Source of the DNA: Blastocatellia bacterium
GTDB taxonomy: Bacteria; Acidobacteriota; Blastocatellia; UBA7656
Direction of reading: 5' to 3'
Assembly (NCBI GenBank): GCA_963765495.1
Contig: CAVXWP010000009.1
Coordinates: 768,001 to 832,000, forward strand
Length of the DNA stretch: 64,000 nt
The notes beneath the pieces were generated by a model, which saw only the letters and a program-made list of their open reading frames with translations, did not search any database and had not been told where the DNA came from. Numbering within the stretch: the first letter of the stretch is position 1; each line of letters starts with the position of its first letter. The position numbers and the translations under genes are program-made. Positions 14,085-33,290 of the stretch are shown piece after piece.

Positions 14085-16377
14085 TTAACAGAAGTCGCTT
14101 ATCAGGACGGCATCTGTGGTCGAGGTGCCGCGTGAGCAGACAAACTGTTTTCCGTCCGGCGACCAGTCGAACGAAAAAATCAGGTCAGATTTAAAATCGG
14201 TCAACTGTTTAGACGGGCCGCCCTCTATCGGCTGAATCCAGATATTAGAGACTCCGTTGTGCGTCTCGACGTAGCTTATTGCGCGGCCATCCGGTGTCCA
14301 GCGAATCTCTCTGATCGGAGAACTGGCGACATCCAATATCTTTACAGGCTCTCCGCCCTCAAAGGGCAGAAGAGCTACATGGAATCGCGAGTTCGGTTGC
14401 TGAGACAGGTAATTGCAGGCTATAAGCTTTGCGTCGGGCGAGACGGCCGGTCTTCCCACCGTATCCTTGAAAGTCAGTTGTACGGGGTCGCCGCCTTCGA
14501 TAGGGACCCTCCACACGTGAACACCCTGCGGGGAATGCCGATAATAAACAACCCATTTGCCGTCAGGTGAACAATCGGGAATGCTCCCGCCATCGACTAA
14601 CTGTCTGGGGTCTGCGCCGTCGCTGTTCATTCTCCAGATGCTTGCCTGGTGCGAGCGATCAGAAGAGAAAACTATATAACGACCATCAGGAGAGACCGAG
14701 GGGAAACTATTGGAACCGGCATCCGAGGTCAGTTGTTTTTGCCCCGTCCCGTCCTCGCTCATAATCCATATATCCTGATTGCCGCTTGCCGCCGACTGGT
14801 AGACTATTCTGCCGTCAGGTGTCCAGCAAAGCCCCGCGTAATCGCTTGTTGCCGATGTGATCTTTTGAGCGCGGGTTTGATCTGCCTCAGGCACGATCCA
14901 GATATTTGCGGACTGCTCGCCCTGCACCGTTACAAGGGTTCGGGAATCTGCCGTAAGGCTCACGCCCATGTAACCGCTCAAGTCATTGGTAATCCTGTAG
15001 GCTTCGCCCTCCGGGTAAGATACGCGCCACAACTGCGGCTGACCGGCTTTCTCAATGGTCGATATAATCAGACCGCTCGCATCGGAAAGCCATGTAAAAG
15101 CTTCGACATAACCCCATTGCTTTTGAGAGAAAGCTTTCTCTGTGCCGTCATCTGCCCGCACTTCGATAAAACTCCTGTTGCCTCCGCCCACGCTGCCGCC
15201 TCTGGCAAAGCTGCCTTCAAGACAGACGATAATATTTCCGTCGGGCGACCACGCCGCTCCCGCCAGATACTCGGGCAGCGTACGCGAGGCAAGCGCACGC
15301 TCACCTGTTCCATCCGTGTTGATTACAACCAGACTTCTATTGAAATTCTCGTCCAGGCGAATGAGGGCGATCCGCTTCCCGTCAGGCGAAAAACTGATGT
15401 TGCTCAATGTGTCCTGTATGCTTATATCCGCGATCAGCTTTTTAGGCTCGCCTCCGAGGACCGTCATTTGATAGAGCGTGGCGCGCGGCTCGCCTTTCTC
15501 TCTCCCGAGGTAATAGATGTAGTTTCCATCACGTGAGAAGGCCAATCCCCGATAAGATCGGTCCCGGGCGGGCCGAAGTATCTGCACGTTGCTTGTCGTG
15601 GCCGCTTGCCTGAGCCAGAGACTCTGCCGTCCCGCATCGTCTATCACATAGATGATATATTTGCCGTCGGGCGAAATCGCCGCCCCCGCCAGATTGCCCG
15701 TCGATGTGAGCTTCGTCATGTTCATCGTCTGAAAAGGCGAGGACGTCTTATTTTCTTCGGGCTTTTGCCCGATGAATCGTGACAACGCAAAAGCGGTCCC
15801 CAAAACGACAACCGCGAGCAGGGTTAAGATGAGGGCCGCGCCTCTCTTATTGCGTTTGATCTCGCTGATGATCAGGTCAACCGAGGATATCGGGCGAGCC
15901 TCATCCGAAGCGAGAGTTTGAGCCGATACCTCGGCCGGGGTCTGAATCACGGTATCCCGGCCCGGGATAGGCGGCGCGGGCTTCCTGTTCGAATCGGCGC
16001 ACCCGCTGGTCATCGGTCATGAAGGTGGCGGGCAGCAATTTGATTGCAACGGGGCGGCCCAGCCTGCTGTCCTGCGCCAGATAGACTTCGCCCATCCCGC
16101 CTTTGCCGATCTTCGAGATTATCTTGTAAGGGCCTATGCGCTGGCCCGATTCCACCCCCGGCCCGGTTTCCGAAACCATCTCGGCCGCCGCTCCAAAGAT
16201 CAGCGATTCGAGGAAGCCGCCCGCTTCATCGTGGGCGGCCAGAAGCGATTCGACCTCTTTTCGAAGCGAGATGTCGTCTCCGCACATGCGGTCGAGCAGC
16301 ACGGCTCGCTCGTCAGATTTGTGCTCAAGCGCCGATTCCAGAATCTTATTGATCTGTTGCCATCGCTCGGGTGTCAT
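14085..16377 (-). pseudogene. Ser/Thr protein kinase-TolB-like beta-propeller fusion with internal deletion and frameshift
   Basis: MTPERWQQ...[12 protein letters not shown]...VAIKLL...RFEQEARAA breaks near 15970 and continues in another frame with linker, TM helix and PD40 (SPDG) repeats. HRD and DFG motifs are absent. Confidence 0.8.
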
Positions 16378-16517
16378 AGAGATCGTGATTCGTGATTCGT
16401 GACCTGATAGAACAAACGCACCTAGCTTATGCATTTGCCCGATGCGAGTCAATTAGAAGGTTATCGAGAACAATCCCTCCTGTCCCACAGGACCAGCATT
16501 TGATTCTCAGGAGATTC

Positions 16518-16586: not shown

Positions 16587-16735
16587 AGCTTCCTTAACAT
16601 AGATTATCCCCCGAAATAAGGCCCGACCTGCCGCTTTGAACCTGTTGCCGCCGGTTGACTACAATGCTAATTTCATGTTTCATGCTTGCTTGCAATTTGT
16701 AGAACAACATCTCTTGCTCAAGTAGAATACAGATA

Positions 16736-19108
16736 TTGTCTTCGATGACGAAAAACAACGGGCAGCAGCCCTCAAACGAATACTCTGCCCCCGCCGGGAC
16801 TTTCTGGCGGGTCGAGGGTAGTCTCCTGAATCTGAGCGCGGTGCGCCCGGTAGGCTTTTTCACCTGGAACGCTCAGAGCTTCCTCGAACGCTGGGCGCGG
16901 CGCTCAGGCGTGGCGCTGCTTGCGCTTGTGCGTCCCCTGCTCTACGCCACGAACCGCGTATTCGCCACCCGCGTGCTGCATTCGCTGCTGCGCGGAGTAA
17001 GCCAGGACCGCCTCGACCTTCTCGGCGAAGAGTATTTCAATTACATCCTCAGACCCCGGCTCAATCAGGAAAGCGTAGAAAAGCTGAGAGAATTGATGAA
17101 CGCGGGTGAAGACGTGATTCTGGTCTCGCAGGGGCTTGAGCACGTCATGCGCCCGCTTGCCGCATACCTCGGGGTCGGTCGCCTGGTAGCCAACCGGCTT
17201 GAGTTTCGCGACGGGCTCGCGACGGGCCGTTTGCTCGATCCGGTCATACGGCCTCGCGGAGGCTTTGCGCGTCTTGCCAGACGAAAGGTGGACGGGCGCA
17301 TCGCCCCGGAACGGATGGCCCGAGACCTCGGATTTTCCGGCGGGCCCGAGGCGCTCGGTCGCGCCATAATTCCTACGACCAGAAACCAGCATTTGCCCAC
17401 CCGCCCCATAGTGCTTTTCGACACCCGCAAACGGCTCAAAGAGTTTTCCGTAAAAGAGTCGCTTGCCGGGAAACACGTTTTGCTGATCGGGACCACCGGC
17501 TTTATCGGCAAGGTATGGCTGGCAAAAATTCTCAGCGAAGTCCCCGATATAGACAAAATATACCTGTTGATTCGCCGCCAGCGATCTACTCCGGCGCAAC
17601 GCCGTTTTGAAAAGATAGTGGAATCCTCTCCGGTCTTTGAGAGCTTCCACGAAAAGTACGGCGAAGATTTGCCGCGTTTCTTAGGCGAGCGAATAGAGGT
17701 GGTCGAAGGCGATGTGACGCTTGCGGGCCTCGGGCTTGAGGCGGAAACCAGAACGCGCCTGCTCGCCCGACTCGATCTTGTGGTCAACAGTTCCGGTCTC
17801 ACGGATTTCAATCCCGACCTGAGACTTGCGCTTTCAATCAACGTGGACGCGACGGTACACGTTCTCGACTTTATTCGCCAGAGCGACCACGCGGGCCTCC
17901 TCCACCTTTCTACCTGCTACGTAGTGGGGCAGAGAGACGGGCGGATACTGGAAGAGATTCGGCCCAACTACACCCCGGCGGGCGTTAAAGGTTTCGATGC
18001 CGAGCGAGAACGCGAGGCGCTTCACGCGCTGGTCAGAGAGATCGAAATCAGAAGCGAAAGCACCGAGGTCACCGAAGAGTTGCGCGCACAGGCGCGGTCA
18101 AAAGCGCCAAAAAATATCAGCGAAGAGGTGCTTGAGAACCACGTCCGAAAGTATCGCTCGCGCTGGGTGCGCGCTCGGTTGACCGAGACCGGGATGCGCA
18201 GGGCAAGAGAACTGGGCTGGCCCAATACCTATACCTTTACAAAGAGCCTGGCCGAATCGCTGCTGGCAAAACGCGGCATAGACCTGCCGGTTGCGATAGT
18301 GCGGCCCTCGATTGTAGAGACATCCACGCAAGACCCGTTCTGCGGCTGGAACGAAGGCGTAAACACATCAGCGCCGCTCTCTTATCTGCTCGGGACTTTC
18401 TTTCGCCAGCTTCCATCAAACGAGCGTAAGTGCCTTGATCTGATCCCCGTAGATATGGTCTCTCGCGGGATGTGTTTGATCTCGGCCGCGATAGTCAATC
18501 GGGTCCACAGCAGGGCATATCAACTGGCTACCTCGGCGGTAAATCCCTGCGACATGCGGCGCTGCATAGAGCTTACGGGGCTTGCCCATCGCAAGCACTA
18601 CCGCGCGCAGGAAGGCTTGGAGCACTGGCTGCGGCGCAGGTTCGATTCTATCCCCGTCTCCAAAGAGCGGTACGAGCGATTGTCTGCGCCGGGGCAGAAG
18701 GCCGTAGTTCATGCCATCCAGCGAATCAGCGCGCCGCTACCGCTCAAGCGTCCGCCCTTTGTGCGCACCGAACGCGACCTTGAACGCGTCGAGAAACTCA
18801 TAGAGCTTTACGAGCCGTTCATTCTCCATAACGAGCACGTCTTTGAAGCCGAGAATGTCGAGCTTTTATCGGAAGCCCTGCCCGAGCGGGAGCGCGAAGC
18901 CTTCAGCTATGACGCGCTTTCGATAGACTGGTGGGAATACTGGATCAATATCCACATCCCCGCGCTTAGGAAGTGGGCCTATCCCTTGATCGAGGGGCGG
19001 CCTCTTGAGTCTCGCCCGAGTCACGATTTTCACCTTCCGGCGCAACAGGCGCAACAGGCCGCTAAGGGAAACAGCAATCGCCTGAGCGATGAGCCTGTAG
19101 GGACTTAA
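16736..19108 (+). CDS. Fusion of a degenerate HAD-IB-like domain and a fatty acyl-CoA reductase (male-sterility family)
   Basis: HAD-like N-terminus ([20 protein letters not shown]) lacking DxD; FAR motifs [31 protein letters not shown]. Confidence 0.85.
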
Positions 19109-19113
19109 TCAGT

Positions 19114-20250
19114 ATGGCAATATTTCTAACAGGCTCGACGGGGTATCTCGGCGCTCACCTCGCGGCAGGCTTATTAGAGGGGCACGCCGAAAAGCTGAAT
19201 CTTCTGGTTCGCGCTAAGAGCGAGCGCGAGGCGGAAGAGAGATTATGGCGCGCCCTGCAACTGCACATGGATTTCCCGCGCTTTTATGACTTCCTGAAGA
19301 CCAGGATCAACATCTTTTGCGGCGATCTGACCGACCCGCGTTTTGGGCTTGAAGCAGATGATTATCTTCGCATGGCGAAGACCACGGATTCGATTATTCA
19401 TTGCGCCGCTTCGCTAAATCGCAAGAGCGAAAAAAGCTGTCTGAATGTAAACCTGAGGGGTACGCTCGAAGTAGTCAAATTCGCAGCCGCCGCCCGCGAC
19501 GATCACGGGCTTCGCCGCATCAGCCACGTGAGCACCGTGGCCGTGGCCGGGCATCGCAGCAATGAAGTGGTCAGGGAAGACGAGGCGATAGACTGGAACC
19601 GTTCCGATTATGACCCCTACGCCCGCACAAAGAAGTTTTGCGAGCACATGGTGGCGGAACTCCTGCCCGATGTGCCTCATACCGTATTTCGCCCGAGCAT
19701 AATACTTGGCGACAGCCGCTGGCCCGAAACCACTCAATTCGATATGGTGCGCTCATTTGTCTTTCTGGCCGGACTTCCCGTCCTGCCCTTTCGCGCCGAA
19801 GACCGCATAGACATAGTGCCAGTGGATTTCGTCGCCTCTTCAATCGTCGCGCTCCATCAAAAAGAGAAGCCCGATCACGATATTTATCATCTGTCGTCGG
19901 GGACAAGTTCTCAGACTTTTCGCGAGCTTACCGATGCGCTCGCGAGGGTCCGCGACAAGCGCGGGCCGGTCTTTTTGCCGAGCCTTGAGCGCCCCTTTAC
20001 GAGCGCGGTCAATTATCTGGCAAACAGACGCGGCACGACTCTCGGTTATGGAGCCTCGCTGCTGAAGGTCTTTATTCCTTATCTTGTGTGGAACACCGTA
20101 TTCGACAACACGCGAGCAGTTACGGAGACAGGACAGTCGCCCGCGCTGTTTTCCGACTACAGCTATGGCCTGTTGAAGTTCGCCAAAGAAGGCAATTTCA
20201 CATACGATTACAAGCAATGGCCGAGTGCCGTAGAGGAGTATGCCCGATGA
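19114..20250 (+). CDS. Extended SDR / thioester-reductase-like oxidoreductase
   Basis: [28 protein letters not shown] (YxxxK), FRPSIILG. Confidence 0.88.
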
Positions 20251-21659
20251 GCATGGATTTGATTTTAGAAGGCTGGGTGAGCGGTCTGATCGAAGTGACG
20301 CGACTTGGCTGGATGCTCGGAGCAGGGAGGAGGTGGACGCCAGGCGAAAAACTGAAGCTGTTGTTTACGGGCTACAACGGCACGCGAAACACGGGCGCGG
20401 ATGTGCGCGTGGAAGAGATGCTCCGCCAGATTCGCCACATACTTGGAGACGAGAATGCCCGGTTGAGCGTACTCAGTCAAAACTTCGACATGACCAGAGG
20501 CTATTTCGACAACGTCAAACAGGTCAAACTGCCCGACATCTTTCCGCCTTTCCTTTACCGCGAAGTGCGCAAGTATGACGGCGTGGTAGCGTGCGAAGGC
20601 TCTATGTTCAAGAGCAAGTTTGCAAACGCGCTGACCACGATGATGATAGGCTCGCTTGCCATCGCTTCATCGCAAAACAAGTTGAGCCTCGGCTACGGCG
20701 CGGAGGCCGGACACATGGACCCTACGCTTGCGAAGATGTGCAAGCGATACTGCAAGGATTCGCTCGTCATCACTCGCAACGAAGAATCGGCCACGGTGCT
20801 TGGCAAGCTCGGCGTATCAACAGAGCTTGGGACCGACACGGCCTGGACCTTTGAGCCGCACGGAAACGAATACGGGGAAATGGCGCTTAAGAAAGTCGGA
20901 TGGGACGGCAGCACGCCTGTTCTGATCGTCTGCCCCATCAATCCGTTCTGGTGGCCCGTGAAGGCATCGGTTGCCAAACGCGCCGCGCATCTTATGACCG
21001 GCGCTTTCAAGGAGAGCCACTACCGTTCGGTCTATTTTCACAATGCCGGGCCGAATGTGGATCGGGCCTACGAGCGTTATTTGAAGGCCATTTCGAACGC
21101 GGTTGACAGGTTTCGCAAAGAGAATCGGGTCTTCCCGGTTCTGGTAGGTATGGAGGCGCTCGATATGAAAGCCTGCAAGAGAGTCTCTGACCACCTCGGG
21201 GGCGTGCCCGTTTTCACATCTTATGAATATGACATGTACCAGCTTGTCAGCATACTTCGCTGCGCTCATATGCTGGTCTCTTCGCGGTATCACGGCATAG
21301 TGACGGCGATGCCCGCGCTTGTGGCCTCGGCCGGTGTGACTATGGACGAGCGCATACGTAATCTGATGCACGAGCGCGGGCACGAAGATTTACTGCTGAC
21401 CGTAGACGACCCGGACCTCGAAGAGAAGCTTCTGGTAGTGATGGGCAAATTGCAAAAAGAGCACGAATCGATACGCGACGGCATAGGGCGAACGGTTGCA
21501 AAAAACCTAAAGGTGATGGCTCGCATGGGAGTCTATTTCGAAGAACACGTGCAGAAGCGTTATCCCGAATTCCCAATACGCACAGGCATCCTGAGCTGGG
21601 AAGATTATCTGCCCCCGTTCAGCCCGAGCTTAAAGAAACTGGTCGAAAATTATGGGTAG
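20247..21659 (+). CDS. Polysaccharide pyruvyl transferase-family protein
   Basis: [12 protein letters not shown]-terminal motif, ITRNEES, VSSRYHG. Start ATG overlaps the upstream TGA. Confidence 0.7.
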
Positions 21660-21688
21660 TGGTCAGTGATCAATGACCACCGCTTGTT

Positions 21689-23335
21689 ATGAACTTTATC
21701 GAGAACATCTTTAATCGCCTCAGACAGACGCCCGAGAGAATCGTGTTGCAGGAGGCGCGGGACGGGCAGATAGTGGCGGCGGAGAGCAAAGAGTTGCTGG
21801 CGCTTATCCGCGCCGCCCGCGCTTTCCTGAGGGCGGCGGGTGTCGGAAAAGGCGACCGCTGCGGCCTGCTTGCCCATAACAGCATCCGATGGGCGGCGAT
21901 GGATCTGGCCTTGATGGCCGAAGGCATTATAGTAGTCCCGCTCTACGCACGACAGGCCCCGGCAGAGCTCGCCGCGATGATGAAAGATTGCAAGACCACG
22001 CTTGTTTGCTCGGGCGATGAGAGTCTTCGAGACGGCATACGGGAAGCCTGGCCCGACGCCCCCCCTGTAAAATTATTCGATGAGATTTTCGCTTATGATT
22101 CGGGCGATCTTACAGACGACCCGCTGCCGCTTGCCAATGCTGACCCGGTGACGATCATCTATACATCGGGCACATCCGGCGAGCCAAAGGGCGTAGTCCT
22201 GACCGCAGGCAACGTTACTTTTATGCTGCCCTGCACCAATGCGCGGCTCGATCTGCTTATGGGCAGACGGGCGGAAGCCGACCGCGTCTTTCATTATCTG
22301 CCTTTCTGCTTCGCCGGATCGTGGATACTGCTGCTCACAAGCCTCACGCGCAATAGTGTGCTCACGATCTCAACCGACCTCAACAAGCTTGTAGATGAGA
22401 TGAAACTGGCCGCGCCCAATTATTTCCTGAATGTGCCCGCGCTGCTTGAGCGCGTTCGCGCGGGTATAGAGAGCCAGTTGAAAGAGCGAGGCGGCGCGGG
22501 GCAGTTCTTATTTGAAAAAGGGAAGACGGCGTGGTTTCGCCATCAGGCCGAGCAATCGAGCCGTATCGACGGAGTGTGGCTGATGCTTGCCGGGAAGCTT
22601 GTCTTCCCGACCATAAAGGAAAGGCTCGGCCCGAATCTGAAGGCGCTGATCTGCGGGTCGGCCCCTCTCAGCCGAGAGACGCAACTCTTTTTCAGTATGA
22701 TAGACATCCCTGTTTTGCAGGTCTACGGGTTGACCGAAACTTCCGCTATCTGCACTATGGATCATCCGCATCAGGTGAGGCCCGGTCGCGTGGGGCCGGC
22801 CATACCCGGCATAGAGATGAAACTCGGCAAGGGCGATGAGATACTTGTGCGGGGGCCGCATATCTTTCCGGGCTACTGGAATCGCCCCGAAGAGACCGGA
22901 CGGGTATTGAATAATGGATGGTTCCACACGGGCGATCAGGGCGAGGTGGATCAATCGGGCAACTGGAACATCATCGGGCGCATAAAGAATCTGATTATCT
23001 TAAGCTCGGGTCATAACATAGCGCCCGAACCAATCGAAGAGATGATCCTGAAAGAGGTTCCGGCAGCCGGGCAGGTGTTGCTTGTTGGAAACGGGCGCAG
23101 CTATGTCTCGGCCATCGTGACCGGAGAGGTGAGCGACCGCGAAGTGGAAACGGCGCTTGACAGGGTCAATCCGCAGTTGCCCCACTACAAACGCATCCGC
23201 GCGTTTTACATATCGAAAGACCCTTTCACTATAGAGAACGGGTTGCTTACGGCCAACGGGAAATTGAAGCGCGATCTTATAACTGGGCATTACGGCGCTC
23301 AGATCGAAGCTCTCTATCGCAGCAAGAAGGCTTGA
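21689..23335 (+). CDS. Long-chain acyl-CoA synthetase (AMP-binding)
   Basis: [32 protein letters not shown]. Confidence 0.92.
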
Positions 23336-23342
23336 GGAACTT

Positions 23343-23567
23343 ATGATTATCAGTTTCGGCGATATTCGCCATCTTATACCGGCATACATATTCAACGAAT
23401 ACGGCCAGCTTACGGGCAACTACGTCTACGGCGACCAGATAGTGTGTGAAGTCGATCAGGGGCGCATAAAAATCTGGCTGAATCAGGACGCCTTTGACCA
23501 GAAAGACCCCGAAAGGCTGATATGCGATTATGATGAAACGACTCTGCGCAGTCAGAGCGCGGGCTAA
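23343..23567 (+). CDS. Small hypothetical protein inside the lipid operon
   Basis: 74 aa, GAGG RBS, fills the gap between flanking genes with 7 and 3 bp spacing. Confidence 0.6.
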   Translation: MIISFGDIRHLIPAYIFNEYGQLTGNYVYGDQIVCEVDQGRIKIWLNQDAFDQKDPERLICDYDETTLRSQSAG

Positions 23568-23570
23568 ATT

Positions 23571-24374
23571 ATGAACAGCTATAACGGCAAGACACTATCC
23601 TGGGAGGTGACAGACGGGTGCGTAGAGCTTAAGCTCCACCGACAGCCCTGCAACGAGATAGGCTCGATCACGCTTGAAGAGCTTGAGCGATTTGCAGAGG
23701 CGCTCGGCTCGCTTGAAAGCTACGCGCACGCGCTCATAATTCACAGCGCGGAAAAACCGGGCTTTTGCGCGGGCGCGGATTTGCGCGAGCTTTACTACCG
23801 CTCACAGGAGACGGCCGAGCCTGACCGCAATGCGGGCGTGCGCGATTTTCTGGAACGCATTCACCGCGTGATGAACCGGATTGACTCGACTCCGTTGACC
23901 ACAATAGCAGCGGTTCACGGAGTCACCTTTGGCGGAGGCTTCGAGCTTGCCCTTGTCTGCGATCTGATCATCGCAGACAAGATGGCGCGCTTCTGTTTTC
24001 CCGAACTCAGGCTTGGGCTCATTCCCGGTTTTGGCGGCATCCCGCGATTAAAGCGCGACCTCGGAAACGGCGTGGTGCGCGACCTGCTGCTGACGGGTCG
24101 AAGTATAAACGCGGCCAAAGCTCAGGCCGTGGGCCTTGTCAGCCAGCTTGCCGCCGAAGGAGAGGCGCTGCGGGTTGCGCGCGCGACCGCCGCGCAGATC
24201 AAGAAGTTTGATCGAGCCACAAGCGCCACGGCCAAGCATTTTATAAAGCCGATTCCCTACGAAGAGTTGCGACAGGAAATAGACATCTTTTGCGATCTGT
24301 TCACGCGCCCGGCAGTCGAGGCAGGGCTGCGAAAGTTTGTAGAAAGCACAGACGCGCTGCCCTACCTGCCGTGA
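23571..24374 (+). CDS. Enoyl-CoA hydratase/isomerase family protein
   Basis: FCAGADL, GGGFELALVCD, FPELRLGLIPG. Confidence 0.92.
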   Translation: MNSYNGKTLSWEVTDGCVELKLHRQPCNEIGSITLEELERFAEALGSLESYAHALIIHSAEKPGFCAGADLRELYYRSQETAEPDRNAGVRDFLERIHRVMNRIDSTPLTTIAAVHGVTFGGGFELALVCDLIIADKMARFCFPELRLGLIPGFGGIPRLKRDLGNGVVRDLLLTGRSINAAKAQAVGLVSQLAAEGEALRVARATAAQIKKFDRATSATAKHFIKPIPYEELRQEIDIFCDLFTRPAVEAGLRKFVESTDALPYLP

Positions 24375-24391
24375 TTGTGAGCAGCAGAGTT

Positions 24392-24506
24392 TTGTAGGGG
24401 CAGCCCGGATGAGTACATTTATTGTGGCTGCCCGAATCCGTCGTAAGCGCGATGACAGTCATCGCCCTTCGGGCGATCCGGGCGAGGACAAGCCTCGCCC
24501 CTACAA
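24392..24506. repeat. REP/REPIN-like element (GTAG-type)
   Basis: TTGTAGGGGC...GCCCCTACAA termini with internal palindromes GGGCAGCC/GGCTGCCC, ATCGCCC-TTC-GGGCGAT and GGGCGAGG/CCTCGCCC. Confidence 0.7.
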
Positions 24507-24519
24507 TCTGGAGATAAAC

Positions 24520-24762
24520 ATGCGAACACTTGAACAAACCACTGATGAGATACTTACGCTCGCGGCGACTCATTTCAAAGTCTCGCGCGAAGAGCTTGCG
24601 CCCGAAGACGATTTTTTCAAGAAACTCGGAATAGACTCTCTGCAAGCGCTCGAACTGCTCACCCGGCTTGAGAATCATTTCAACGTAGAGTTGCCCGATT
24701 ACGAGATTCAGGGAGTGACCGACTTTCACACTCTGGCCGATAGAATCCAATCGAGACTGTAG
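24520..24762 (+). CDS. Acyl carrier protein
   Basis: [11 protein letters not shown] phosphopantetheine motif; start at ATG 24520 after GGAG. Confidence 0.92.
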
Positions 24763-24766
24763 ACCG

Positions 24767-26479
24767 ATGCTCGACCTCAACATATACCAGTCCCTCGGCG
24801 CTGCGCTCAAAGACGCGCTTGAGCAATGGCCCTACGAGACCTGCCTGATCGAAGCCGACCGCGACCGCGAGAACTGCCGCCTGACTTACCGTCAGTTCAA
24901 AGAAGCCGCTCTCCCGCTTGCCGCATACCTTCAGCAGTCGGGGTTCAAGGCAGGTTCTCGGGCAGCCATCATAATGACAAATCAGTCGAAGTGGCTCATC
25001 AGCGCCTACGCCATATTTTATGCGGGCGGCGTTCTTGTGCCGCTCGATTACAAGCTGAGCGCCCGCGAACACCTGCAATTACTCGCGCATTCCGGGGCCG
25101 AAGTCCTCGTGGTCGAATACTATCTCTGGCGCGCGATAATCGCCGAAGAAGGGTTCAAAGACCTGAAGGCCCGGACCATCCTCGTCACCGAGGCACCGGC
25201 CAGGGCCGATCTTAAAGGGGCCGGGCGATGGGAAGAAGCCAGAGGCGCGAGCGAGCCGCAGTTTGTCGAGCGAGAGCGCAAAGACATGGCCTGCATAGTC
25301 TATTCGTCGGGCACAGGCGGCAGGCCGAAGGGCTGCGTGCTCACGCACGAAAACTATCTCGAACAATGCATGGCGCTCACATCGCTCTACCCGTTCTGGC
25401 CGGGCGTTCGTTACCTGAGCATCCTGCCTACGAATCACGCGATAGATTTCATGGTCGGTTTTATAGGCCCGTTCACCTGCGGCGCAGCCGTGGTTCATCT
25501 GCGCACGCTCCGCCCGGAGTATGTGCGCGAGGCGTTTCCGCGTTACAAGATCACCTACATGAGCCTCGTGCCTATGGTGCTGAAGAACCTCGAAAAGGGA
25601 TTGCGCGCCCGCTTTGATGAACTGCCCGCGACAAAGCGATTCGTGTTCAACCGGCTTCTGGGCATCAATCGCGGGCTTACGCGGAAGCGGCCAAATCTGA
25701 ATCTGAGCAGGCGGCTTCTCAAACAGGTGCACGAAGCATTCGGCGGAGAGTTGAAGTCGCTTTTCGTGGGCGGCGCTTTTATTGATCCGGGGACGTTGCA
25801 GTTTTTCTATGACCTCGGCATTCAGGTGTCGAACGGCTACGGACTGACGGAAGCGGGCACTGCCGTTACCTTAAACGATATGAATCCGTTTCGAGCAAAT
25901 ACGGTTGGGAAGCCTCTGCCGGGCATGGAGGTGAAGATAATAAATCCCGACGCGGAAGGCATAGGACAGGTGGCGGTTCGCAGCAAGACCGTGATGTCTC
26001 ATTATCTGGATGACCCGGAGATGACCGCCGAAACTATTGTGGACGGCTGGCTGATGACGGGCGATCTCGGACGCATTGACGACGCGGGCCACCTGCAATT
26101 ATTCGGGCGGGCAAAGAACATGATCGTCACCGAGGGAGGGAAAAACGTCTACCCCGAAGACATCGAATCGGCTTTTGAAGACGTGCCTGTAAAAGAGCTT
26201 TGCGTCTTTGCGGCAAACTATATCTGGCCCGAGCACACGATGACGGGCGAGCAACTGGTAATAGTGCTTGGACTTGAGCCGGGGCAGAAATTCACCGAAG
26301 AGTTGCGCGCAGTATTGATCGAGCGCAATCGCCGACTGCTCGATTACAAACGGATAAGCGGCTACGTTTTATGGACAGACGAGTTTCCGCGCACCGCCTC
26401 GCTCAAGATCAAACGCGGCGTTCTGGCGGAAGAATTGCGGAGCCGTCTCGACCGCCAAACAGCGCTGGTAGAACTGTGA
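24767..26479 (+). CDS. Second AMP-dependent acyl-CoA/acyl-ACP ligase
   Basis: [34 protein letters not shown]. Confidence 0.92.
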
Positions 26480-27375
26480 CGACACCGTACCTTGCAATAG
26501 TAAATCCGGCTGCCGGGTTTGGTCGCGCGGGCAAACTGGTAGGCCCCGCGCTCGACCGCCTGCGCGCCGAAGGCGTTGAGATTGAGGTGGTTGAAACCCG
26601 TTACGCGGGCCACGCTACCGAGATCACGAGAGAGGCTTACCGCGAAGGGCGCACGCGTTTTCTGGCCGTCGGGGGGGACGGCACCTCTTTTGAAATCGTA
26701 AACGGATTGTTCCCCGAAGCCGAAGGCAAAGAGCCTCCTGTGCTTGGCTTTTTGCCGCTCGGTACGGGCAATTCCTTCCTCAGAGATTTTTCCGAAGACG
26801 GACTCGCGCATGCCCGCCGCGCGCTCGTAGAGAATCGCTCGCGCCCGTGCGATGTCGTGCGGTTGACTCATAAAGAGGGCGAGATCTATTTCATCAATAT
26901 CCTGAGCCTCGGTTTCGTAGCCGATGTCTGTATGCTCGCCAATCGCCGTTTCAAACGCATGGGAGAGATGGGTTACATGCTCGCCGTAGTGCTTTGCCTT
27001 GCGCGATTCAGGCAGGGCGAATTTACCATGCGGGTGGATGGCGCAACCGAGCCCGACACTCATCGCACGGCGTTGCTGATATTCAACAACAGTAAATACA
27101 CGGGCGGCAAGATGATGCTTGCTCCAAACGCCGACACGAGCGATGGGTTGATCGACATAGTTCGATGGTCGTCGGGGCGCTTCGATTTTATATCGAATTT
27201 TTCCAAAGTGTATGACGGTTCGCACGTAAACCACCCGCTCGTATGGCAGGGCAGGGCAGGGCGCATTGAATTTGATTTCGACAGCCCGGTTGATGTGATG
27301 GTGGACGGCGAGGTGCTGACCCTGCAATTCAAATCGCTTGAAGTTCTGCCTTCGGCCCTGACGGTGATGGTATGA
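26476..27375 (+). CDS. Diacylglycerol/lipid kinase family protein (YegS/DAGK)
   Basis: [29 protein letters not shown] start overlaps the upstream stop. Confidence 0.9.
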
Positions 27376-28124
27376 AGAAAGTCTATCTGATCATACGCAG
27401 CATAATTGTATGGCTTGTGAGCGGTCTGCATTTTTTCACCGTTTGCAGCTTTCTGGTCCTGCTTGGCGCATTCATTGATCCGCGCAAAAACGACCGCCCG
27501 CAGCGATGGTTCTTTCGCAATATACTCAGGCTTGCAGGCGTGGGGTTCGAAGTAAAATACGCGCCCGGATTCGACCGCGAGCGCACGAGTTTTTTCGTCT
27601 GCAACCACATAAACATTTTCGACGCCTTTGTCATCTATTCCGCCATCCCTCAATTCGTGCGCGGGCTTGAGCTCGAATCCCATTTCAAAATCCCGGCTTA
27701 CGGCTGGATGATGAAACGTTTCGGCAACATCCCTGTGCCCGCCGAAAGCACGGCATCGGCGCTGAAAGAGATGATGAAACGCACGCGCCGGGCGCTCGAC
27801 GCGGGTGTGAGCCTGATTGTCTTTGCCGAAGGCACGCGCACCGTGACGGGCCGCGTAGGGCCTTTCAAAGAAGGCATCTTTCGCATGGCGATTCAATTCG
27901 GCTACCCGGTAGCGCCGATGAGCATTGTCGGTTCCTATGAATTCAATCGCAAAGGCGACTGGATGCTCTATCCTTCGAAGATAACCGTCTACATGCACGA
28001 CACAATCGAGACAAAGGGACTAAGCAAAAATGATGTAGAGGCGTTAAGGGATCGCGTGCATAAGATCGTTTCCGCGCCGGTTGATGAGCACTTCGGCATA
28101 GGCGCGAAATCGGAAGCGGTGTGA
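27372..28124 (+). CDS. Lysophospholipid acyltransferase (PlsC family)
   Basis: NHINIFD (HX4D), FAEGTRT, PFKEG. Confidence 0.9.
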
Positions 28125-28257: not shown

Positions 28258-30276
28258 TCAACGAATTCCCGTTCGGAAGTCGCCCTGCATCACGGTTTGC
28301 CCGAGCAGGTCCTGTATCTCGATGTGGCGAATGGAGTCTATCTGCCCGGGCAAGGGCGGGAGCGGCTGTCCCACCCCGTCATTTGCAAACAGGACCCGCG
28401 CATATCCGAATCGAGCGGCTACCAGCCCGATTGTCACGCCGTCGGCCACTACGCGATAAGTCTCGCCCGAATTAAGGCCCTCGACCTCTATGCCTAAACG
28501 CTCGCGGTCGGATTCAATGCTTATCCGCGCCCGGCCTCCGGCATCCGCGAGCCCGAGCGTCGACGCGAGCCGCGCTTCTTTCTCAAGCGATCTGATAACA
28601 GGCTCCGGCCCCGGGCCATCTGTAGAGAAATCGCCTTGAAGGATGATTCTGCCCAGCGCGTCTCGCAACTCGACACGTTTTATAGTAGTCAGAGGATCGA
28701 GCGGCGCGGGCAGCGGAGCCTCTCCCGGAGCGGTCGAAAATTTGAATTTGAGACCGCCCAGACTGGCCGATAAATCCGCGCCTACTTCCCTGTCGTCTAC
28801 AAACAGATCATACGTAGAGCGGACGTTTAGGCCGATGGCTTCGAGGACGAATTCCTGCGTGCTTCCGGTGACGGTTATAGAGGCGCGGCCTCGCCCGCTG
28901 CCAACCGACGGGCCGCGCATAAGCTCAAGTTCGATGTGATTGAACGAAGGGCGGTCCTGAATAAGCTGGGCCTGGAGCGCGGCAAGCGGGTCGATACGCC
29001 CTTTGCCAAGCTTTCCGGCATATTCGGGATTGATGTCGTCAAGGTTTACGGCAGTGCCTGTTATGAGCCGGTCTACATCGGGAAATCTTGAATCCGCCGA
29101 GAGCAGGAGCGCGGCTTCTGCCGAAGCGAACGGCGCGGCGAAAGAGGTCCCGCTCCACCTCGCATAATTGCTCGGATCATCAGCGGGATCGGTGCCCGGA
29201 TACGCGCTTATGAGCTTGGTGCCGGGAGCGCACACGTCTACGTGTTTGCCGAAGTTTGAAAATTCGGATTTCCTGCCGTCCAGATTGATCGCGGCCACGG
29301 CTATGACATCGGGTGAGCTTGAAGGGTACATAGCGGGTTTTGCCGTATTGTCGTTCCCGACGGCGGCTACCATAACTATTCCGCGCTCCTTTGCATAATT
29401 TATCGCGTCTTCGAGCAGGGGCGATACTTCGGGCGAGCCGAGGCTGAGGTTGATCACATTCGCGCCGTGGTCCACCGCATATTTGATGGCGGCGGCTACC
29501 GTAAAAGCATCGCTCATGCCTTCGGGCGGGAAGGCGCGGACGGGGAGGATGCGGCAATCGGGCGCGAGCATATTGATGAGCCCGCCGATAAATGTGCCGT
29601 GCCCGGCGACGGTCGTTTCCGGGTCGTCGGCCTCTTCCGAGGGGTCGTTGTCGTTGTCTACGAAATCCCACCCGCGAGCGTCGTCTACGAGCCCGTCGCC
29701 GTCGTTATCAATCCCGTCTCCTTCGATGTCGGCATTGCGCCGTTCATCTTTCCAGATTTGACCGGCGATCTGGGGGTGAGCGAAGTTTATTCCCGTATCA
29801 ATAAGCGCGACTACTATATTTGCGCCTCGTGAACGAATGCTCACCTGTTCAAGCGCGAGCAGATCGAACAGCGCCTGTTGCGAGTTGTAATCAAGCAGAC
29901 TGAGGCCCGGAGAGGCGACGCCGTCCGGGAAGCTGAAGGTTGATCGCCCAAAGAGGCTCGGGCTTGTGATAACGGGGTTGAGCGAGGCGCTCAAAACGTC
30001 GCGGTCTTTGCTGAGTTTCTTGCGCCATTTCTTCTCCTTCTTCGCTTTTGGGGTCAGGAGTCTATAGAAATTGGTCCCATAAAGCCGCTCGATGGTCGTG
30101 GTGCCAAAACGCGCGTTTATTGCTTCAATCGAAGCGCCCGCCTTTATTTCGACCACGACTTCGCCCCTGCGGACATCCTTGTTGATTTCATCCGGCTGAC
30201 CTTCGGTTTGAGCCATCAGGGGCGTGGCCCCACCCAAAAGCAATATCAAAACAAGAACCGCATTTATCAGCTTCAT
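28258..30276 (-). CDS. Secreted S8 subtilase with duplicated C-terminal beta-rich domain
   Basis: Signal peptide; IDTG, HGTFIGG, WSGTSFAAP; DNDGDGLVDD calcium loop; two similar C-terminal units, each ending in QGDF. Confidence 0.9.
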   Translation of the reverse strand: MKLINAVLVLILLLGGATPLMAQTEGQPDEINKDVRRGEVVVEIKAGASIEAINARFGTTTIERLYGTNFYRLLTPKAKKEKKWRKKLSKDRDVLSASLNPVITSPSLFGRSTFSFPDGVASPGLSLLDYNSQQALFDLLALEQVSIRSRGANIVVALIDTGINFAHPQIAGQIWKDERRNADIEGDGIDNDGDGLVDDARGWDFVDNDNDPSEEADDPETTVAGHGTFIGGLINMLAPDCRILPVRAFPPEGMSDAFTVAAAIKYAVDHGANVINLSLGSPEVSPLLEDAINYAKERGIVMVAAVGNDNTAKPAMYPSSSPDVIAVAAINLDGRKSEFSNFGKHVDVCAPGTKLISAYPGTDPADDPSNYARWSGTSFAAPFASAEAALLLSADSRFPDVDRLITGTAVNLDDINPEYAGKLGKGRIDPLAALQAQLIQDRPSFNHIELELMRGPSVGSGRGRASITVTGSTQEFVLEAIGLNVRSTYDLFVDDREVGADLSASLGGLKFKFSTAPGEAPLPAPLDPLTTIKRVELRDALGRIILQGDFSTDGPGPEPVIRSLEKEARLASTLGLADAGGRARISIESDRERLGIEVEGLNSGETYRVVADGVTIGLVAARFGYARVLFANDGVGQPLPPLPGQIDSIRHIEIQDLLGQTVMQGDFRTGIR

Positions 30277-30288
30277 AATAACCTCGCA

Positions 30289-30404
30289 GCGATACGTGAT
30301 ACGTGATACGCGATACGTGATGCGTGATATGTGAAATTAGCACTGACCTGCAAAACAGTCGTTAACCTTAAAATTACGAATCACGTATCACGCATCGCGC
30401 ATCA
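30289..30404. repeat. Hairpin with CGTGAT(A/G) heptamer arms
   Basis: About 6 units GCGATACGTGATACGTGATACGCGATACGTGATGCGTGAT; opposing arm ATCACGTATCACGCATCGCGCATCA includes the CHAT gene stop codon. Confidence 0.85.
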
Positions 30405-33290
30405 ATTTGGGTTGCCCATCAAGACAAACGGAGCCCAGTAGTAAGGATGCCCATACATGTCTTTGAGGGCAAGTTGCGCCGCCCTGAGCGCCGCTCGTTT
30501 CGTAGCGCCTTCGCGCAAATGCCCGTACATCTCTTGCATAAATTCGGCCGTAGCCGTGTCGTTTGCCGCCCACAGGCTTGCGACAAGCGAAGGCGCTCCC
30601 GCATAGAGGAAGCCCCGCACGAGCCCGTGAAGCTCATCACCCGGAAAGACCATGTTTACTCCCGTGTGGCAGGCCGAAAGCGTGACCATCTCGGCCTTTA
30701 ATTCAAGCTCTAACAGACTGTAAAAATTCAGAGGCGAATCGGCGAGCTTCAGAAATGAAAACATGGGATTGTCCCGCCTGAAATATCCGTGCGAAGCCAG
30801 ATGAAGAAAACGCGCTCGCGGCGCGTGCTTCATGAGGTTGTCGCGTGTGGCATCGTCTCCGACAAGAGTCACAGCGCCGGGGAAGATTTTTCTGAGGGCC
30901 GAGACTTCAGCCTCTATGCTGGGCGTTTCCGGGTGCGCTACGCCAAGAGCCACCATATCGCATTTGAGATTCGAGATTTGAGATTCGAGATTTGAGCTTG
31001 CCCGAGCATCCGCGCTGATCTGATTGCCCCGGTCGCGGCAGAGCTTTAGCACGGTTGCGCTTGGCGCGTATGAAATTTCAAAGCGGTCAATCAGAAAACC
31101 GCGCCGGTCGAGCAGCGCGTGAAACGGCACATAATGCAGCGCCCCGTGCGGGATGATAATCAAGCGGTCGCCTTCTATGTAGGGTTCGAGCGGCGCAAAG
31201 ACCGCCTCAGATAACCGTATCAGATGCTGGTTGGTTGCGTGGTTGAGATGTTCGAAATGCTCGTCGGCAAACTCCGACCCGTAATTGAATTTCTCAAGCT
31301 GAAACCTGAGCCCGGCAAGCATCTTTTCCACCTCGCCCTTTGAGGCTACCTCACGCACTACCCTGATGCAGTCGCGGCCTACGATAAAGGCTGAGACTAC
31401 ATTTCCCGTTGTGAAGTATTCGATAGCCGTCTCGTCGGCTTCAAGCGAGCTTCGCAAATCCGATACGGAAGCCGCCTGCATGCGCTGCATCTCGGCAAAC
31501 TGAGAGCCGTCGGCCTCCATGCGGCGGAATAGCTCGGCTATACGGCGTTCGCAGTGCTCGACCTGGCGAGCATATCGCCCCGCAACGTGTGCCCTGCGCT
31601 GATTGCCCTTTTCATCTTCGAGTCTCGCCTGAGAGCTATACCAGTTCAAGTTTTCAATCAACGTGAGCAATCGCGTCCGTGCCTCGTCTTCGACAGGTCG
31701 GCGAGCGGTGGATTGCGGGTCGCGCAAGTATCTGGCGAGCAGGTCGGCGAGCGCCCGAGATTTCGACGATTCGACCAGACGGAATGCCTCTTCGACAAGC
31801 GGTTCCGTGCTTTGATCGAGGCACGCGCCGATAGCGTCTTCATACACCCCGATCTTATCGCGCAGGAAAGTAGCCTTGAATTCATCAGCGGCGATTCCGC
31901 CTCGCATCTGCTCTACGGTTCGAACCGCGATTTGAAATCTTTCGAGAGCCGCACGTATCTGCCCCCGGTCCCTCTCTATCTTTCCGATCAGATGGTGACA
32001 TTGATATGTGACCGAGGGGACGAGTTGCGCTGTCGCTCGGCCAAGCGCGGCGCGGGCCTTGCGAGCCGCTTTTTTACTGTCGCCCGCGAGGTATGCCGCC
32101 CGCGCCCCAAGCAACCTGGAGTAGGCGGCTCGGCCCGGGAGTTTCTGCCGCGAAAAGACTCTGAGCGCCGCGCCCGCCCGCGCGGCTGCCTCTGTGTGGT
32201 CGCCTCGCCGCAGAGAAAGCTCCGACAGATAAGTGTCTACTGTGGCGGCGAATGTGTTGTTGCGGTTGGCGGCAAACACCTCTCTTGCGCTTTCGAGAAA
32301 TAGGCCGGCCTGATCCAACTGTGCCAGCCCCATTGCCGCGAGCGCCCGCACGACGAGGGCCTGCGCGGATTCGTAAGGCGTGCCGATCTGGCTAAATTGA
32401 TCGTGCGCGAGCGCGGCGTGTTCGCTCGCGTCGTCGAATGAATTGAGCGCAAGCAGAATCTCGGCTATTTCGAGATTGCACCACGCCACAAGCCACTGGC
32501 TTCCGAACCCTGCTAGTTGCTCTCGCACGTTATAGTACCCGGCGAGCGCAGCGTTGTAATTTCCTCTGAGGAATTGAAGATAAGCGATCTTGGAGCGAGC
32601 CTGCGCCGCAAGCAGCGTCTGTCCCGCGTCTTCAAGTACAGAGGCGGCCTGCTCAAGCAAAGCCATTGCCTCAAGCGGGCGATCCATCTCAGCAAATATA
32701 TTTGAGCGATTGCCGTCAACGAGCGCGCACATGGTCGCCTCGTCTTTCGATTCCAGAATTTCGCGGGCCGTGTCGTAATGCGCGAGCGCCTTCTTATACC
32801 TGTCGAGCCGGTAATAGATATTGCCTACGTGGGTTTCAAGCTGGGCGAGATGGACCGGTTCGTTTTTCGCAAGCGCGCGTCTTGCCGTTCGGGCAAGGCG
32901 CAATGCGTCCTTGTAGCGGCCCATCTGTGTAAGGGCATCCACCTGCTGTTTTTGAAATATAGCCGCCTGCGTCCGAAGCCTTGCCGCAAGGAGTGCATCC
33001 ACCGCGCTTTCGAAAAGATTGTTTGCTTCGGTGTGGCGACCCGACAGGTGAAGCACGCGAGCGCGTCCGGCTCTGGCAAAGGCGGTCGAGACCGGATTGT
33101 TTTCTACTGCCGCGAGCTGATTTATGCGGTCGGCGAGGCGGGAGGCTGCGGCGAGGTCGCGGCCCGCAAGATGATCCACTTCCGATTTGAGGGCAGCAAA
33201 CACCTCTCGGCCGGCGCTCGGGCCATGCTCGCGCATAAACGCCTTCAAGTCCTCGGCGTTCATCAGCCTGTTGACGAGTTCGCTACTCAA
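30402..33290 (-). CDS. TPR-CHAT caspase-like protease
   Basis: Long TPR array; ESSKSRAL; IIPHGALHYVPFHAL; catalytic His (LHLASHG) and Cys (TLSACHTG); HPYYWAPF. Confidence 0.93.
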   Translation of the reverse strand: MSSELVNRLMNAEDLKAFMREHGPSAGREVFAALKSEVDHLAGRDLAAASRLADRINQLAAVENNPVSTAFARAGRARVLHLSGRHTEANNLFESAVDALLAARLRTQAAIFQKQQVDALTQMGRYKDALRLARTARRALAKNEPVHLAQLETHVGNIYYRLDRYKKALAHYDTAREILESKDEATMCALVDGNRSNIFAEMDRPLEAMALLEQAASVLEDAGQTLLAAQARSKIAYLQFLRGNYNAALAGYYNVREQLAGFGSQWLVAWCNLEIAEILLALNSFDDASEHAALAHDQFSQIGTPYESAQALVVRALAAMGLAQLDQAGLFLESAREVFAANRNNTFAATVDTYLSELSLRRGDHTEAAARAGAALRVFSRQKLPGRAAYSRLLGARAAYLAGDSKKAARKARAALGRATAQLVPSVTYQCHHLIGKIERDRGQIRAALERFQIAVRTVEQMRGGIAADEFKATFLRDKIGVYEDAIGACLDQSTEPLVEEAFRLVESSKSRALADLLARYLRDPQSTARRPVEDEARTRLLTLIENLNWYSSQARLEDEKGNQRRAHVAGRYARQVEHCERRIAELFRRMEADGSQFAEMQRMQAASVSDLRSSLEADETAIEYFTTGNVVSAFIVGRDCIRVVREVASKGEVEKMLAGLRFQLEKFNYGSEFADEHFEHLNHATNQHLIRLSEAVFAPLEPYIEGDRLIIIPHGALHYVPFHALLDRRGFLIDRFEISYAPSATVLKLCRDRGNQISADARASSNLESQISNLKCDMVALGVAHPETPSIEAEVSALRKIFPGAVTLVGDDATRDNLMKHAPRARFLHLASHGYFRRDNPMFSFLKLADSPLNFYSLLELELKAEMVTLSACHTGVNMVFPGDELHGLVRGFLYAGAPSLVASLWAANDTATAEFMQEMYGHLREGATKRAALRAAQLALKDMYGHPYYWAPFVLMGNPN

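Follow-up and report, generated by a model that had tools for sequence, protein, structure and literature searches.

In Myxococcus xanthus, the elb cluster (elbA–E; MIBiG BGC0000871) encodes ElbD, a single protein that joins fatty acyl reductase (FAR), acyl-CoA synthetase (ACS), acyl carrier protein (ACP) and acyltransferase (AT) domains. Genetics shows that M. xanthus needs ElbD for alkyl and vinyl ether lipids, and the protein's activities as ACS and as ACP have been shown in vitro; most of its steps are described as uncharacterised and its mechanism as unresolved (PMC9131029). Ether lipids and the genes elbB–E have been reported in subdivision-4 Acidobacteria, a phylum suspected to be the source of the branched glycerol dialkyl glycerol tetraether (brGDGT) markers of palaeoclimate and whose ether-forming genes are debated (PMC13159169, PMC10087280, PMC11868695). 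An elbD variant split between the reductase and adenylation (A) domains is described from Poribacteria and soil Acidobacteria (bioRxiv 10.64898/2026.06.23.733905, section 14). Alkyl ether bond formation in aerobic bacteria is unresolved, which gives relevance to the operon analysed here, ten open reading frames (ORFs) at positions 16736–28124 of a 64,000-nt stretch (the window) of contig CAVXWP010000009.1 from a Blastocatellia bacterium of the phylum Acidobacteriota.

From sequence comparison, this operon is a distinct lineage related to elb, with new components, and we put at roughly one in two the probability that it is an alternative to fused ElbD, making an alkyl (ether-type) glycerolipid precursor from fatty acids. 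The original prediction, drawn from the DNA letters and their ORFs, was of a ten-gene lipid operon resembling a split and extended ElbD-type pathway. The domains that it named are confirmed by Pfam and NCBIfam profile scans, the basis of the domain calls throughout, and the ORF map shows ten co-directional, tightly packed + strand ORFs that fill the span, annotated as follows:

g1, 16736..19108, + strand: ElbB-like pseudo-HAD (about residues 20–215) fused to a FAR of the alcohol-forming type
g2, 19114..20250, + strand: stand-alone thioester reductase, an extended SDR of the R-domain type of nonribosomal peptide synthetases (NRPS) and polyketide synthases (PKS)
g3, 20247..21659, + strand: GT-B-fold protein of the pyruvyl-transferase family, its start overlapping the g2 stop by 4 nt
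g4, 21689..23335, + strand: acyl ligase 1, AMP-binding, FadD11/long-chain acyl-CoA synthetase-like, with AMP-binding_C_3
g5, 23343..23567, + strand: 74-aa orphan ORF between g4 and g6, with GAGGAA upstream
g6, 23571..24374, + strand: crotonase-fold enoyl-thioester hydratase/isomerase (ECH_1, 134 bits)
g7, 24409..24762, + strand: dedicated ACP, a 117-aa ORF (PP-binding, 50 bits)
g8, 24767..26479, + strand: acyl ligase 2 (AMP-binding, 239 bits)
g9, 26371..27375, + strand: soluble DgkB/YegS-type lipid kinase with DAGK_cat and YegS_C
g10, 27372..28124, + strand: PlsC-type acyltransferase with a hydrophobic N-terminus (Acyltransferase, 73 bits)

Successive gaps from g1 to g10 are 5, −4, 29, 7, 3, 34, 4, −109 and −4 nt, the gap between g6 and g7 growing from 34 to 145 nt with Met38 as the start of the ACP. 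The FAR part of g1 and the proteins g2, g4, g7, g8, g9 and g10 retain intact catalytic signatures.

Conservation in two phyla

The signature gene of the operon, and its most distinctive one, is g3, which we used as the probe for related loci. It has matches in 15 of 401 sampled Acidobacteriota genomes, 14 of them close (64–100% identity), in 13 of 41 genomes and 8 of 20 genera of the window's own family, where it is consistent within genera, and in 33 of 301 sampled Myxococcota genomes, the myxococcotal homologs being named as uncultured Sandaracinaceae, Myxococcales or Myxococcota. We compared 34 related loci by tblastn: 18 acidobacterial (13 from other families and 5 from the same family) and 16 myxococcotal, some of which stop at contig ends.

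The order g1–g2–g3–g4 is found in all 13 other-family acidobacterial loci, together with the ACP and ligase 2 in 9, the kinase in 8, PlsC in 3 and g5 in none. The five same-family loci have the same gene order, and one of them, L123, holds all nine genes other than g5. Among the 16 myxococcotal loci, the FAR and the transferase are present in 16, the reductase in 15, the crotonase in 14, and the ACP and ligase 2 in 11; a HAD-like gene is found in 13 by tblastn and in one more, L119, by Pfam, and four loci hold every module in the window's order. Gene by gene, g2 is kept in 18/18 acidobacterial and 15/16 myxococcotal loci and g4 in 18/18 and 9/16; an ortholog of g6 occurs in 11/13 other-family loci (with one further, divergent copy), 3/5 same-family loci and 14/16 myxococcotal loci. 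The corresponding counts are 8/13, 1/5 and 9/16 for g9, and 3/13, 1/5 and 8/16 for g10.

The operon is thus a real, conserved gene grouping and not a chance one, because its order and content recur in the 18 acidobacterial and 16 myxococcotal loci; co-occurrence elsewhere was a check that the original prediction had proposed, and it bears the prediction out. The count of ten genes holds for the ORFs of the window only. Because g5 is matched in none of the 34 loci, even at E = 10, the conserved unit has nine genes. The 74-aa ORF belongs to no Pfam or NCBIfam family, a protein atlas gave no usable match to it (recognition 1776), and in L123 and L096 g4 and g6 abut, leaving no space for it; it appears to be a lineage-specific or spurious ORF outside the unit. 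The minimal common set comprises the pseudo-HAD, FAR, reductase, transferase, at least one ligase and, mostly, the crotonase.

Several loci depart from this pattern. No ketosynthase is found in the window's operon by Pfam or NCBIfam, as predicted, and one relative has a FabH-like β-ketoacyl-ACP synthase III (KAS III) gene between crotonase and ACP (L090:9236-10240, genome G016) and a DUF4199 protein between g1 and g2 (L090:3294-3800). In the same family, two loci have a DUF4126 membrane protein between crotonase and ACP (L123:5376-5966, L127:12145-12753). A second copy in genome G587, L119, is a reduced variant made up of an NMO-type gene, HAD, FAR, transferase, crotonase, ACP and ligase 2, without thioester reductase and without ligase 1; a 779-aa ORF overlaps its ligase 2 match, and in it Pfam reports only FA_desaturase (residues 531–755).

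Kinship with ElbB and ElbD

Longer relatives of g8 are mostly 1,400–1,650 aa and have the ElbD architecture, NAD_binding_4/Sterile, AMP-binding, PP-binding and Acyltransferase; these fused ElbD-like proteins include ones from Minicystis, Persicimonas and Pyrinomonadaceae. An alignment of ten of them led to loci from named genomes, and 11 such canonical elb loci were compared with the operon by tblastn, the domain-by-domain comparison with ElbB–E that had been suggested. Of ElbB–E, the operon has counterparts of ElbB and ElbD but not of ElbC or ElbE. The FAR part of g1 matches the N-terminus of ElbD (29–37% identity) and its HAD part matches ElbB, a separate upstream gene (29–38%). The adenylation domain of ElbD is matched by g8 (29–34% over more than 90% of its length) and, at lower identity, by g4 (26–30%), which makes g8 its closest counterpart, and the ElbD acyltransferase domain is matched by g10 (24–34%, some of the high-scoring pairs being short). 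No counterpart of g3, g5 or g6 was found by tblastn in the 11 loci.

The two systems thus share homologous modules at 24–38% identity: FAR, adenylation domain, ACP, PlsC-type acyltransferase and an ElbB-type HAD fold are all in the operon, and a DgkB/YegS-type kinase lies beside some canonical clusters (L012, L022, L023). They differ in that the single 1,450–1,600-aa protein ElbD corresponds to four genes here (g1, g8, g7 and g10), in that the operon HAD is fused to the FAR and has lost the motif I Asp and motif IV, and in the extras of the operon, a stand-alone thioester reductase, a GT-B protein of the pyruvyl-transferase family, a second ligase and a crotonase.

By Pfam, in the canonical loci L012 and L018, ElbB is a HAD protein (PF12710), ElbC a Lar_N protein (PF09861) and ElbE an epimerase-type SDR. 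The Lar_N calls (L012:5502-7100 and L018:6208-7959) have E of about 1e-38. ElbC is described as a protein of unknown function (PMC9131029), and in the literature searched we found nothing linking it with lactate racemase. As an ortholog of ElbE, g2 was rejected (22% identity to L012 ElbE over 205 residues), and tblastn of the operon genes at 1e-5 gave no match in the ElbE region of the canonical loci. Nor is g3 an ElbC, since ElbC belongs to Lar_N.

In a quick maximum-likelihood tree built from 39 FAR domains with g2 as outgroup, whose root is unresolved, the 27 operon FARs all group together (SH-aLRT 99) and the fused ElbD FARs fall outside; within the operon clade, Acidobacteriota (100) and Myxococcota (87) are each monophyletic. 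With its FARs grouped separately from the fused ElbDs, the operon is not simply an ElbD in pieces. Module by module it is homologous to ElbB and ElbD, as the prediction of an ElbD-type pathway had it, and the kinship is partial; the notion of a simple split does not stand, given the separate FAR clade and the lack of ElbC and ElbE.

The distribution of the two systems is consistent with their being alternatives to each other. The same 401 Acidobacteriota genomes were scanned with the FAR part of a Pyrinomonadaceae ElbD as probe, and 78 of them have an ElbD-type FAR, with exactly one match each. These are fused ElbDs in 34 genomes (FAR identity 56–79%), divergent fused ElbDs in 28 (29–35%; one of these genomes, G049, is flagged unpublished), operon-type FARs in 14 (ORFs of 781–822 aa) and stand-alone FARs in 2 (ORFs of 545 and 566 aa). 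The 14 genomes with operon-type FARs are the same 14 that have a close g3, and fused ElbD occurs in 0/14 operon carriers vs 62/387 non-carriers. Within the window's class, fused ElbD is present in 27 of 27 genomes of one family, and the operon in three other families. In Myxococcota, where we counted ORFs of at least 1,200 aa as fused ElbD, 92 of 301 genomes have one: 2 of 33 carriers (G477 and G637) vs 90 of 268 non-carriers. Direct checks found g3 in none of 5 canonical-ElbD genomes and full-length ElbD in none of 10 carriers. Both systems therefore occur in the same phyla, rarely in the same genome. The divergent fused type, with ORFs of 1,445–1,508 aa, is found in families that differ from those of the Pyrinomonadaceae type.

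Two other known systems share parts with the operon. Like the peroxisomal route (FAR1, GNPAT, AGPS and alkyl-DHAP reductase) and M. xanthus MXAN_1674–1676, it has a Sterile-domain FAR, a PlsC/GNPAT-type acyltransferase and an SDR reductase (pathway: PMC9131029); unlike them, it has no AGPS-type flavoenzyme, the rest of the genome not having been searched for AGPS. With carboxylic acid reductases and NRPS-like adenylation–thiolation–reductase (A-T-R) proteins it shares a ligase, a carrier protein and a thioester reductase, and carboxylic acid reductase is among the weak NCBIfam matches of g2, g4 and g7, but these matches, at 75–139 bits, fall far below the cut-off of 1300, and each part is a protein of its own here. 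A search of the window's genome found no HGD-D (PlsA/Ger-type) gene.

In the literature searched we found no description of this architecture and no characterised pathway that matches it, as had been anticipated; the 2018 primary paper and preprint supplements lie outside that literature, so an earlier depiction is possible. Sinninghe Damsté et al. 2018 is reportedly cited for elb genes and the split variant in soil Acidobacteria, and may show part of the architecture. Searches joining pyruvyl transferase with ether lipid, or with FAR, ACP or Acidobacteria, brought up nothing relevant. The literature searched describes only fused ElbD or the split between reductase and A domains (bioRxiv 10.64898/2026.06.23.733905). 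The word 'pyruvyl' is absent from the available text of that preprint and of PMC9426513, and the preprint text also lacks 'crotonase', 'enoyl-CoA' and 'thioester reductase'.

Domains and motifs of the encoded proteins

The first gene, g1, starts at TTG 16736 or ATG 16745 and has Pfam matches to HAD (PF12710, 46 bits), NAD_binding_4 (PF07993, 175 bits, residues 251–578) and Sterile (PF03015, 41 bits, residues 682–747). Its FAR part has the features of an alcohol-forming FAR, a Rossmann domain with the motifs GTTGFIG (GxxGxxG) and YTFTK (YxxxK) followed by a C-terminal Sterile domain. In a search of the whole genome, g1 and g2 were the only FAR-type genes, no ORF joined a FAR with other ElbD domains, and PlsC matches lay in ORFs of at most 453 aa.

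The HAD part has kept the fold and probably not the chemistry. In alignment with six ElbB proteins, its motif I reads WRVEGS, the nucleophilic Asp being replaced by Arg. All 14 acidobacterial g1 copies have (F/Y)WR(V/I)EGSL where ElbB has D-x-(D/E)-G-T, and in all 14 a linker replaces the acidic region of motif IV; Arg stands at this position in the 13 myxococcotal HAD-like genes too (F-x-R-x-(E/D)-G), and these likewise lack motif IV. The Asp is kept in 6/6 ElbB. Because Arg stands in its place in 27/27 HAD copies, the HAD part of g1 is probably not a phosphatase but a pseudo-phosphatase, so that of the predicted HAD–FAR fusion the fold and the reductase stand and HAD catalysis probably does not. 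In Myxococcota the HAD is separate from, but adjacent to, the FAR (12 separate genes, with a single copy, in L115, fused as in Acidobacteriota), and in Acidobacteriota it is fused. That the fold is kept, separate in one phylum and joined to the FAR in the other, suggests a non-catalytic partner, a binding or docking module for the reductase.

The second reductase, g2, scores 163 bits against NAD_binding_4, 145 bits against TIGR01746 and 110 bits against the MxcG R-domain, and has the motifs GSTGYLG and YARTK. Among the other enzymes, g4 has TSGTSGEPK and YGLTE; g8 has both the 14-residue stretch and TGDLG; g9 has GGDG and scores 141 bits against TIGR00147, over the cut-off of 118.65; and g10 has HINIFD (HX4D) and FAEGTR. 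In g6 we identified by eye an FCAGADL oxyanion motif and both Glu positions (GGGFELA and FPELRLG), roles that we presume to be those of the rat enoyl-CoA hydratase motifs. The ACP, g7, has DSL with Ser77; its conserved part begins near Met38 (24520), alignments to relatives starting at residues 27–48 and the first 28–37 residues of the ORF not being conserved, and its homologs always lie directly upstream of ligase 2. The long g9 ORF overlaps the end of g8 by 109 nt (26371–26479) in another frame. In same-family and myxococcotal loci (L123 and L111, for example), tblastn of g9 reaches residues 1–5, with an overlap of about 75–105 nt; this long overlap may itself be conserved, or the conservation of the g8 C-terminus may produce it as an artefact.

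The extra component g3 is the sole PF04230 match in the genome by profile search. It scores 32.9–33.7 bits against this family (PS_pyruv_trans), above the gathering cut-off of 25.3, and 64 bits against the CsaB equivalog model, far under the cut-off of 213, by which it was rejected as a CsaB. An AlphaFold2 model built from 43 homologs (pLDDT 94.9) has a GT-B fold; the closest structures found with Foldseek are UDP-GlcNAc 2-epimerases (Z 23) and GT4 enzymes, PimA and MGD1 among them (Z about 20), which agrees with the original prediction of a GT-B-like transferase among the extra enzymes. Pvg1p (5ax7) is not among the best 50 structural matches, where the best GT-B proteins have Z of 19–23. Against PDB sequences, g3 had no match singly, and its profile matched only at E of at least 0.08, at the level of chance. 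At an E threshold of 1e-30, too strict even for g3-type genes, 21 relatives scanned with PF04230 gave no match.

Kinship of g3 with the ketal pyruvyl transferases (PF04230: Escherichia coli WcaK, Paenibacillus CsaB and Schizosaccharomyces pombe Pvg1p) is seen in its GT-B-like two-domain fold and in conserved positions. In hhalign, the g3 family profile aligns with E. coli WcaK over 270 columns (probability 96.9%, E 1.3e-10), matching R177, G-x-DTAW, R347-x-H349 and R369 (Lys in WcaK); R177, R347-Y-H349 and R369 are invariant or at least 90% kept in the 43 homologs. The PEP (phosphoenolpyruvate)-binding residues of CsaB and Pvg1p are an Arg, an Arg-x-His and a Lys about 20 residues on, and the g3 residues correspond to R148, R306, H308 and K328 of CsaB by motif and spacing, not by superposition (PMC10435577). 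The differences are an identity of about 20%, a Pfam score barely above the cut-off, an N-terminal, acceptor-side region (residues 1–103) that does not align to WcaK, and a context of lipid genes: in all 34 related loci g3 stands among fatty-acyl enzymes, not polysaccharide genes. We read g3 as a divergent enzyme of the pyruvyl-transferase family, which probably still uses PEP, with an acceptor other than a saccharide.

Identity of g3 is 64–83% across acidobacterial classes, the same family included, and 43–58% to Myxococcota homologs. Distant homologs (37–41% identity) in L103 and L104 stand without other operon genes, one of them adjoining a patatin-like phospholipase and an MFS transporter. 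In the same-family locus L127, the g3 homolog lies in two frames (G742:C3:1019881-1021288; residues 1–345 and 343–469) and a 4.8-kb insertion separates crotonase and ACP; this operon may be a decaying copy.

Candidate products of the operon

By analogy with ElbD, the operon could make an alkylglycerol lipid in the following way. Ligase 1 would make acyl-CoA, and ligase 2 would load the dedicated ACP, as the homologous domain does in ElbD. Thioesters would be reduced to fatty alcohol or aldehyde by the g1 FAR together with g2, the stand-alone thioester reductase. The alkyl chain would then be joined to a three-carbon backbone, with participation of g3, as a membrane-facing GT-B transferase of the PEP type, and of the hydratase g6; the DgkB/YegS-type kinase g9 would phosphorylate the neutral product, and the PlsC-type g10 would acylate it; the resulting ether analogue of phosphatidic acid would pass into phospholipid synthesis. 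A kinase and a PlsC would suit glycerolipid assembly from a non-phosphorylated alkyl intermediate. All substrates and products, the order of the steps and the ether-lipid nature of the product are inferred. An ElbD-like role is supported by the intact domains and motifs, by the gene order conserved in two phyla and by the genome having no other FARs. The lack of an HGD-D gene noted above also speaks for it, as do the names of homologs, which put the organism in Blastocatellia; this class is subdivision 4, from which ether lipids and elb genes have been reported (PMC13159169, PMC10087280).

Several observations weigh against this reading. The depletion of ElbD among carriers is not absolute, G477 and G637 holding both systems, and the counts rest on related, non-independent genomes. 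Its patchy occurrence (13/41 genomes of its own family and 15/401 of the phylum sample) marks the operon as an accessory trait and not as one that membranes of the class have in general. PlsC and kinase are missing from many loci, though some loci end at contig ends. By Pfam, ElbC (Lar_N) is absent from the operon, the single Lar_N gene of the genome lying on another contig (C8) with 24% identity to ElbC over 131 residues, and the operon has no ElbE-type SDR. A simple ElbD-like route needs no second reductase, second ligase, crotonase or pyruvyl-transferase-like enzyme. Furthermore, elbD homologs need not go with ether lipids: Pontiella has such homologs, and no ether lipids were detected in it (PMC11868695).

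A bolder variant, which we consider speculative and improbable as it stands, is that the operon uses PEP to build the glycerol backbone, and with it the ether bond, de novo. The FAR would yield a fatty alcohol, onto which g3 would transfer enolpyruvyl from PEP; the ether would arise in this step, as an O-alkyl enolpyruvate, with no need for AGPS or a radical enzyme. A ligase would thioesterify the carboxylate to ACP or CoA, the crotonase would hydrate the 2-alkoxy-acrylyl thioester, the stand-alone thioester reductase would produce O-alkylglycerol, and the kinase, acting as an alkylglycerol kinase, and then PlsC would phosphorylate and acylate it. Such a scheme uses each conserved enzyme once, explains a kinase beside a dead phosphatase domain, and fits the minimal common set of FAR, reductase, transferase, one ligase and crotonase. 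Members of the lactate-racemase family act on 2-hydroxy acids; since ElbC is a protein of this family, the two systems could share a C3 2-oxy-acid intermediate. The scheme also predicts an ether on C2 and not at the usual sn-1, which counts against it.

It is doubtful, in our view, that the operon makes a glycerol-free or pyruvylated lipid, such as a diol or its pyruvate ketal, in place of an alkylglycerol. The crotonase would give a 3-hydroxyacyl thioester and the two reductases a long-chain 1,3-diol or hydroxy-alcohol. On the diol, g3 would form a pyruvate ketal in the way that its relatives form one on the 4,6-diol of sugars, and the hydroxyls left over would be decorated by the kinase and PlsC. 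The PEP-site signature of ketal pyruvyl transferases that g3 keeps (residues as in PMC10435577) argues for such chemistry, as do the presence of two reductases and a g6 that, by its motifs, seems a full hydratase. Kinases of the DAGK_cat family are not specific for diacylglycerol, which we count in the same direction, and the FabH-like KAS III of L090 and the NMO-type gene and desaturase fusion of L119 suggest chain tailoring in relatives. Yet no such lipid appears in the literature searched, the operon encodes no acyl-CoA dehydrogenase or other source of an enoyl substrate, and both its homology with ElbB and ElbD and the rarity with which it shares a genome with fused ElbD suggest instead the physiological role of ElbD.

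We hold it improbable that the product is no membrane lipid at all but a free fatty alcohol, an aldehyde, a wax-like compound or a small NRPS-like metabolite or signal, with the kinase and PlsC as loosely associated housekeeping genes. In its favour, the always-present core is pseudo-HAD, FAR, reductase, transferase and one ligase, PlsC and kinase have the low counts given above, and the distribution is patchy, as of an accessory trait; antiSMASH calls fused elbD-like clusters of sponge symbionts NRPS-like biosynthetic gene clusters (PMC9426513). Where present, however, the kinase and PlsC stand at the same place and in the same order in both phyla, and there is an overlap between the kinase gene and ligase 2. 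In a domain scan, the window's operon showed no wax synthase, thioesterase or exporter, and the N-terminus of g10 looks by eye like a membrane anchor.

That unrelated lipid genes were juxtaposed by chance and do not cooperate is hardly credible: promoter and terminator scans of the operon, no richer than shuffled sequence, define no single transcription unit, but the genes lie on one strand with gaps of 3–34 nt or overlaps, recur in the same order in 34 loci of two phyla, and include a HAD and a FAR fused in Acidobacteriota and adjacent in Myxococcota.

If the operon is indeed an alternative to fused ElbD, it offers the chemistry of ElbD as separate, individually expressible enzymes, and its four conserved extra enzymes hint at how the backbone is attached. 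It also supplies a candidate alkylglycerol kinase and a candidate non-saccharide substrate for the pyruvyl-transferase family. Its carriers, soil Acidobacteriota and Myxococcota, are mostly without fused ElbD and would therefore be scored wrongly by screens that use ElbD as the only marker.

The source genome is 7.3 Mb and 98% complete, and the only sequencing run listed as carrying this stretch is one of soil metagenome DNA, with no RNA run among the carriers. The GC content of the operon (0.555–0.574) is inside the range of the surrounding window and gives no compositional support for recent horizontal acquisition, which we rejected; within the family, presence follows genera. One sigma-70-like site lies 5′ of g1, at 16636–16665. 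The neighbours on both sides are on the − strand and unrelated to the operon. The upstream gene (14085–16452, −) consists of two overlapping ORFs in different frames, a 642-aa PD40/WD40 β-propeller and a 183-aa ORF in which a protein kinase domain is represented by no more than its first 48 positions, and may be a frameshifted or broken Ser/Thr kinase gene. Downstream (28258–33290, −) lie a subtilase, whose prodomain is fervidolysin-like, and a TPR-CHAT protein of 962 aa. In one acidobacterial genome each, a myo-inositol-1-phosphate synthase gene stands directly 5′ of g1 (L094:14056-15498), and two tyrosine-recombinase genes stand 3′ of the operon (L096:11443-13783).

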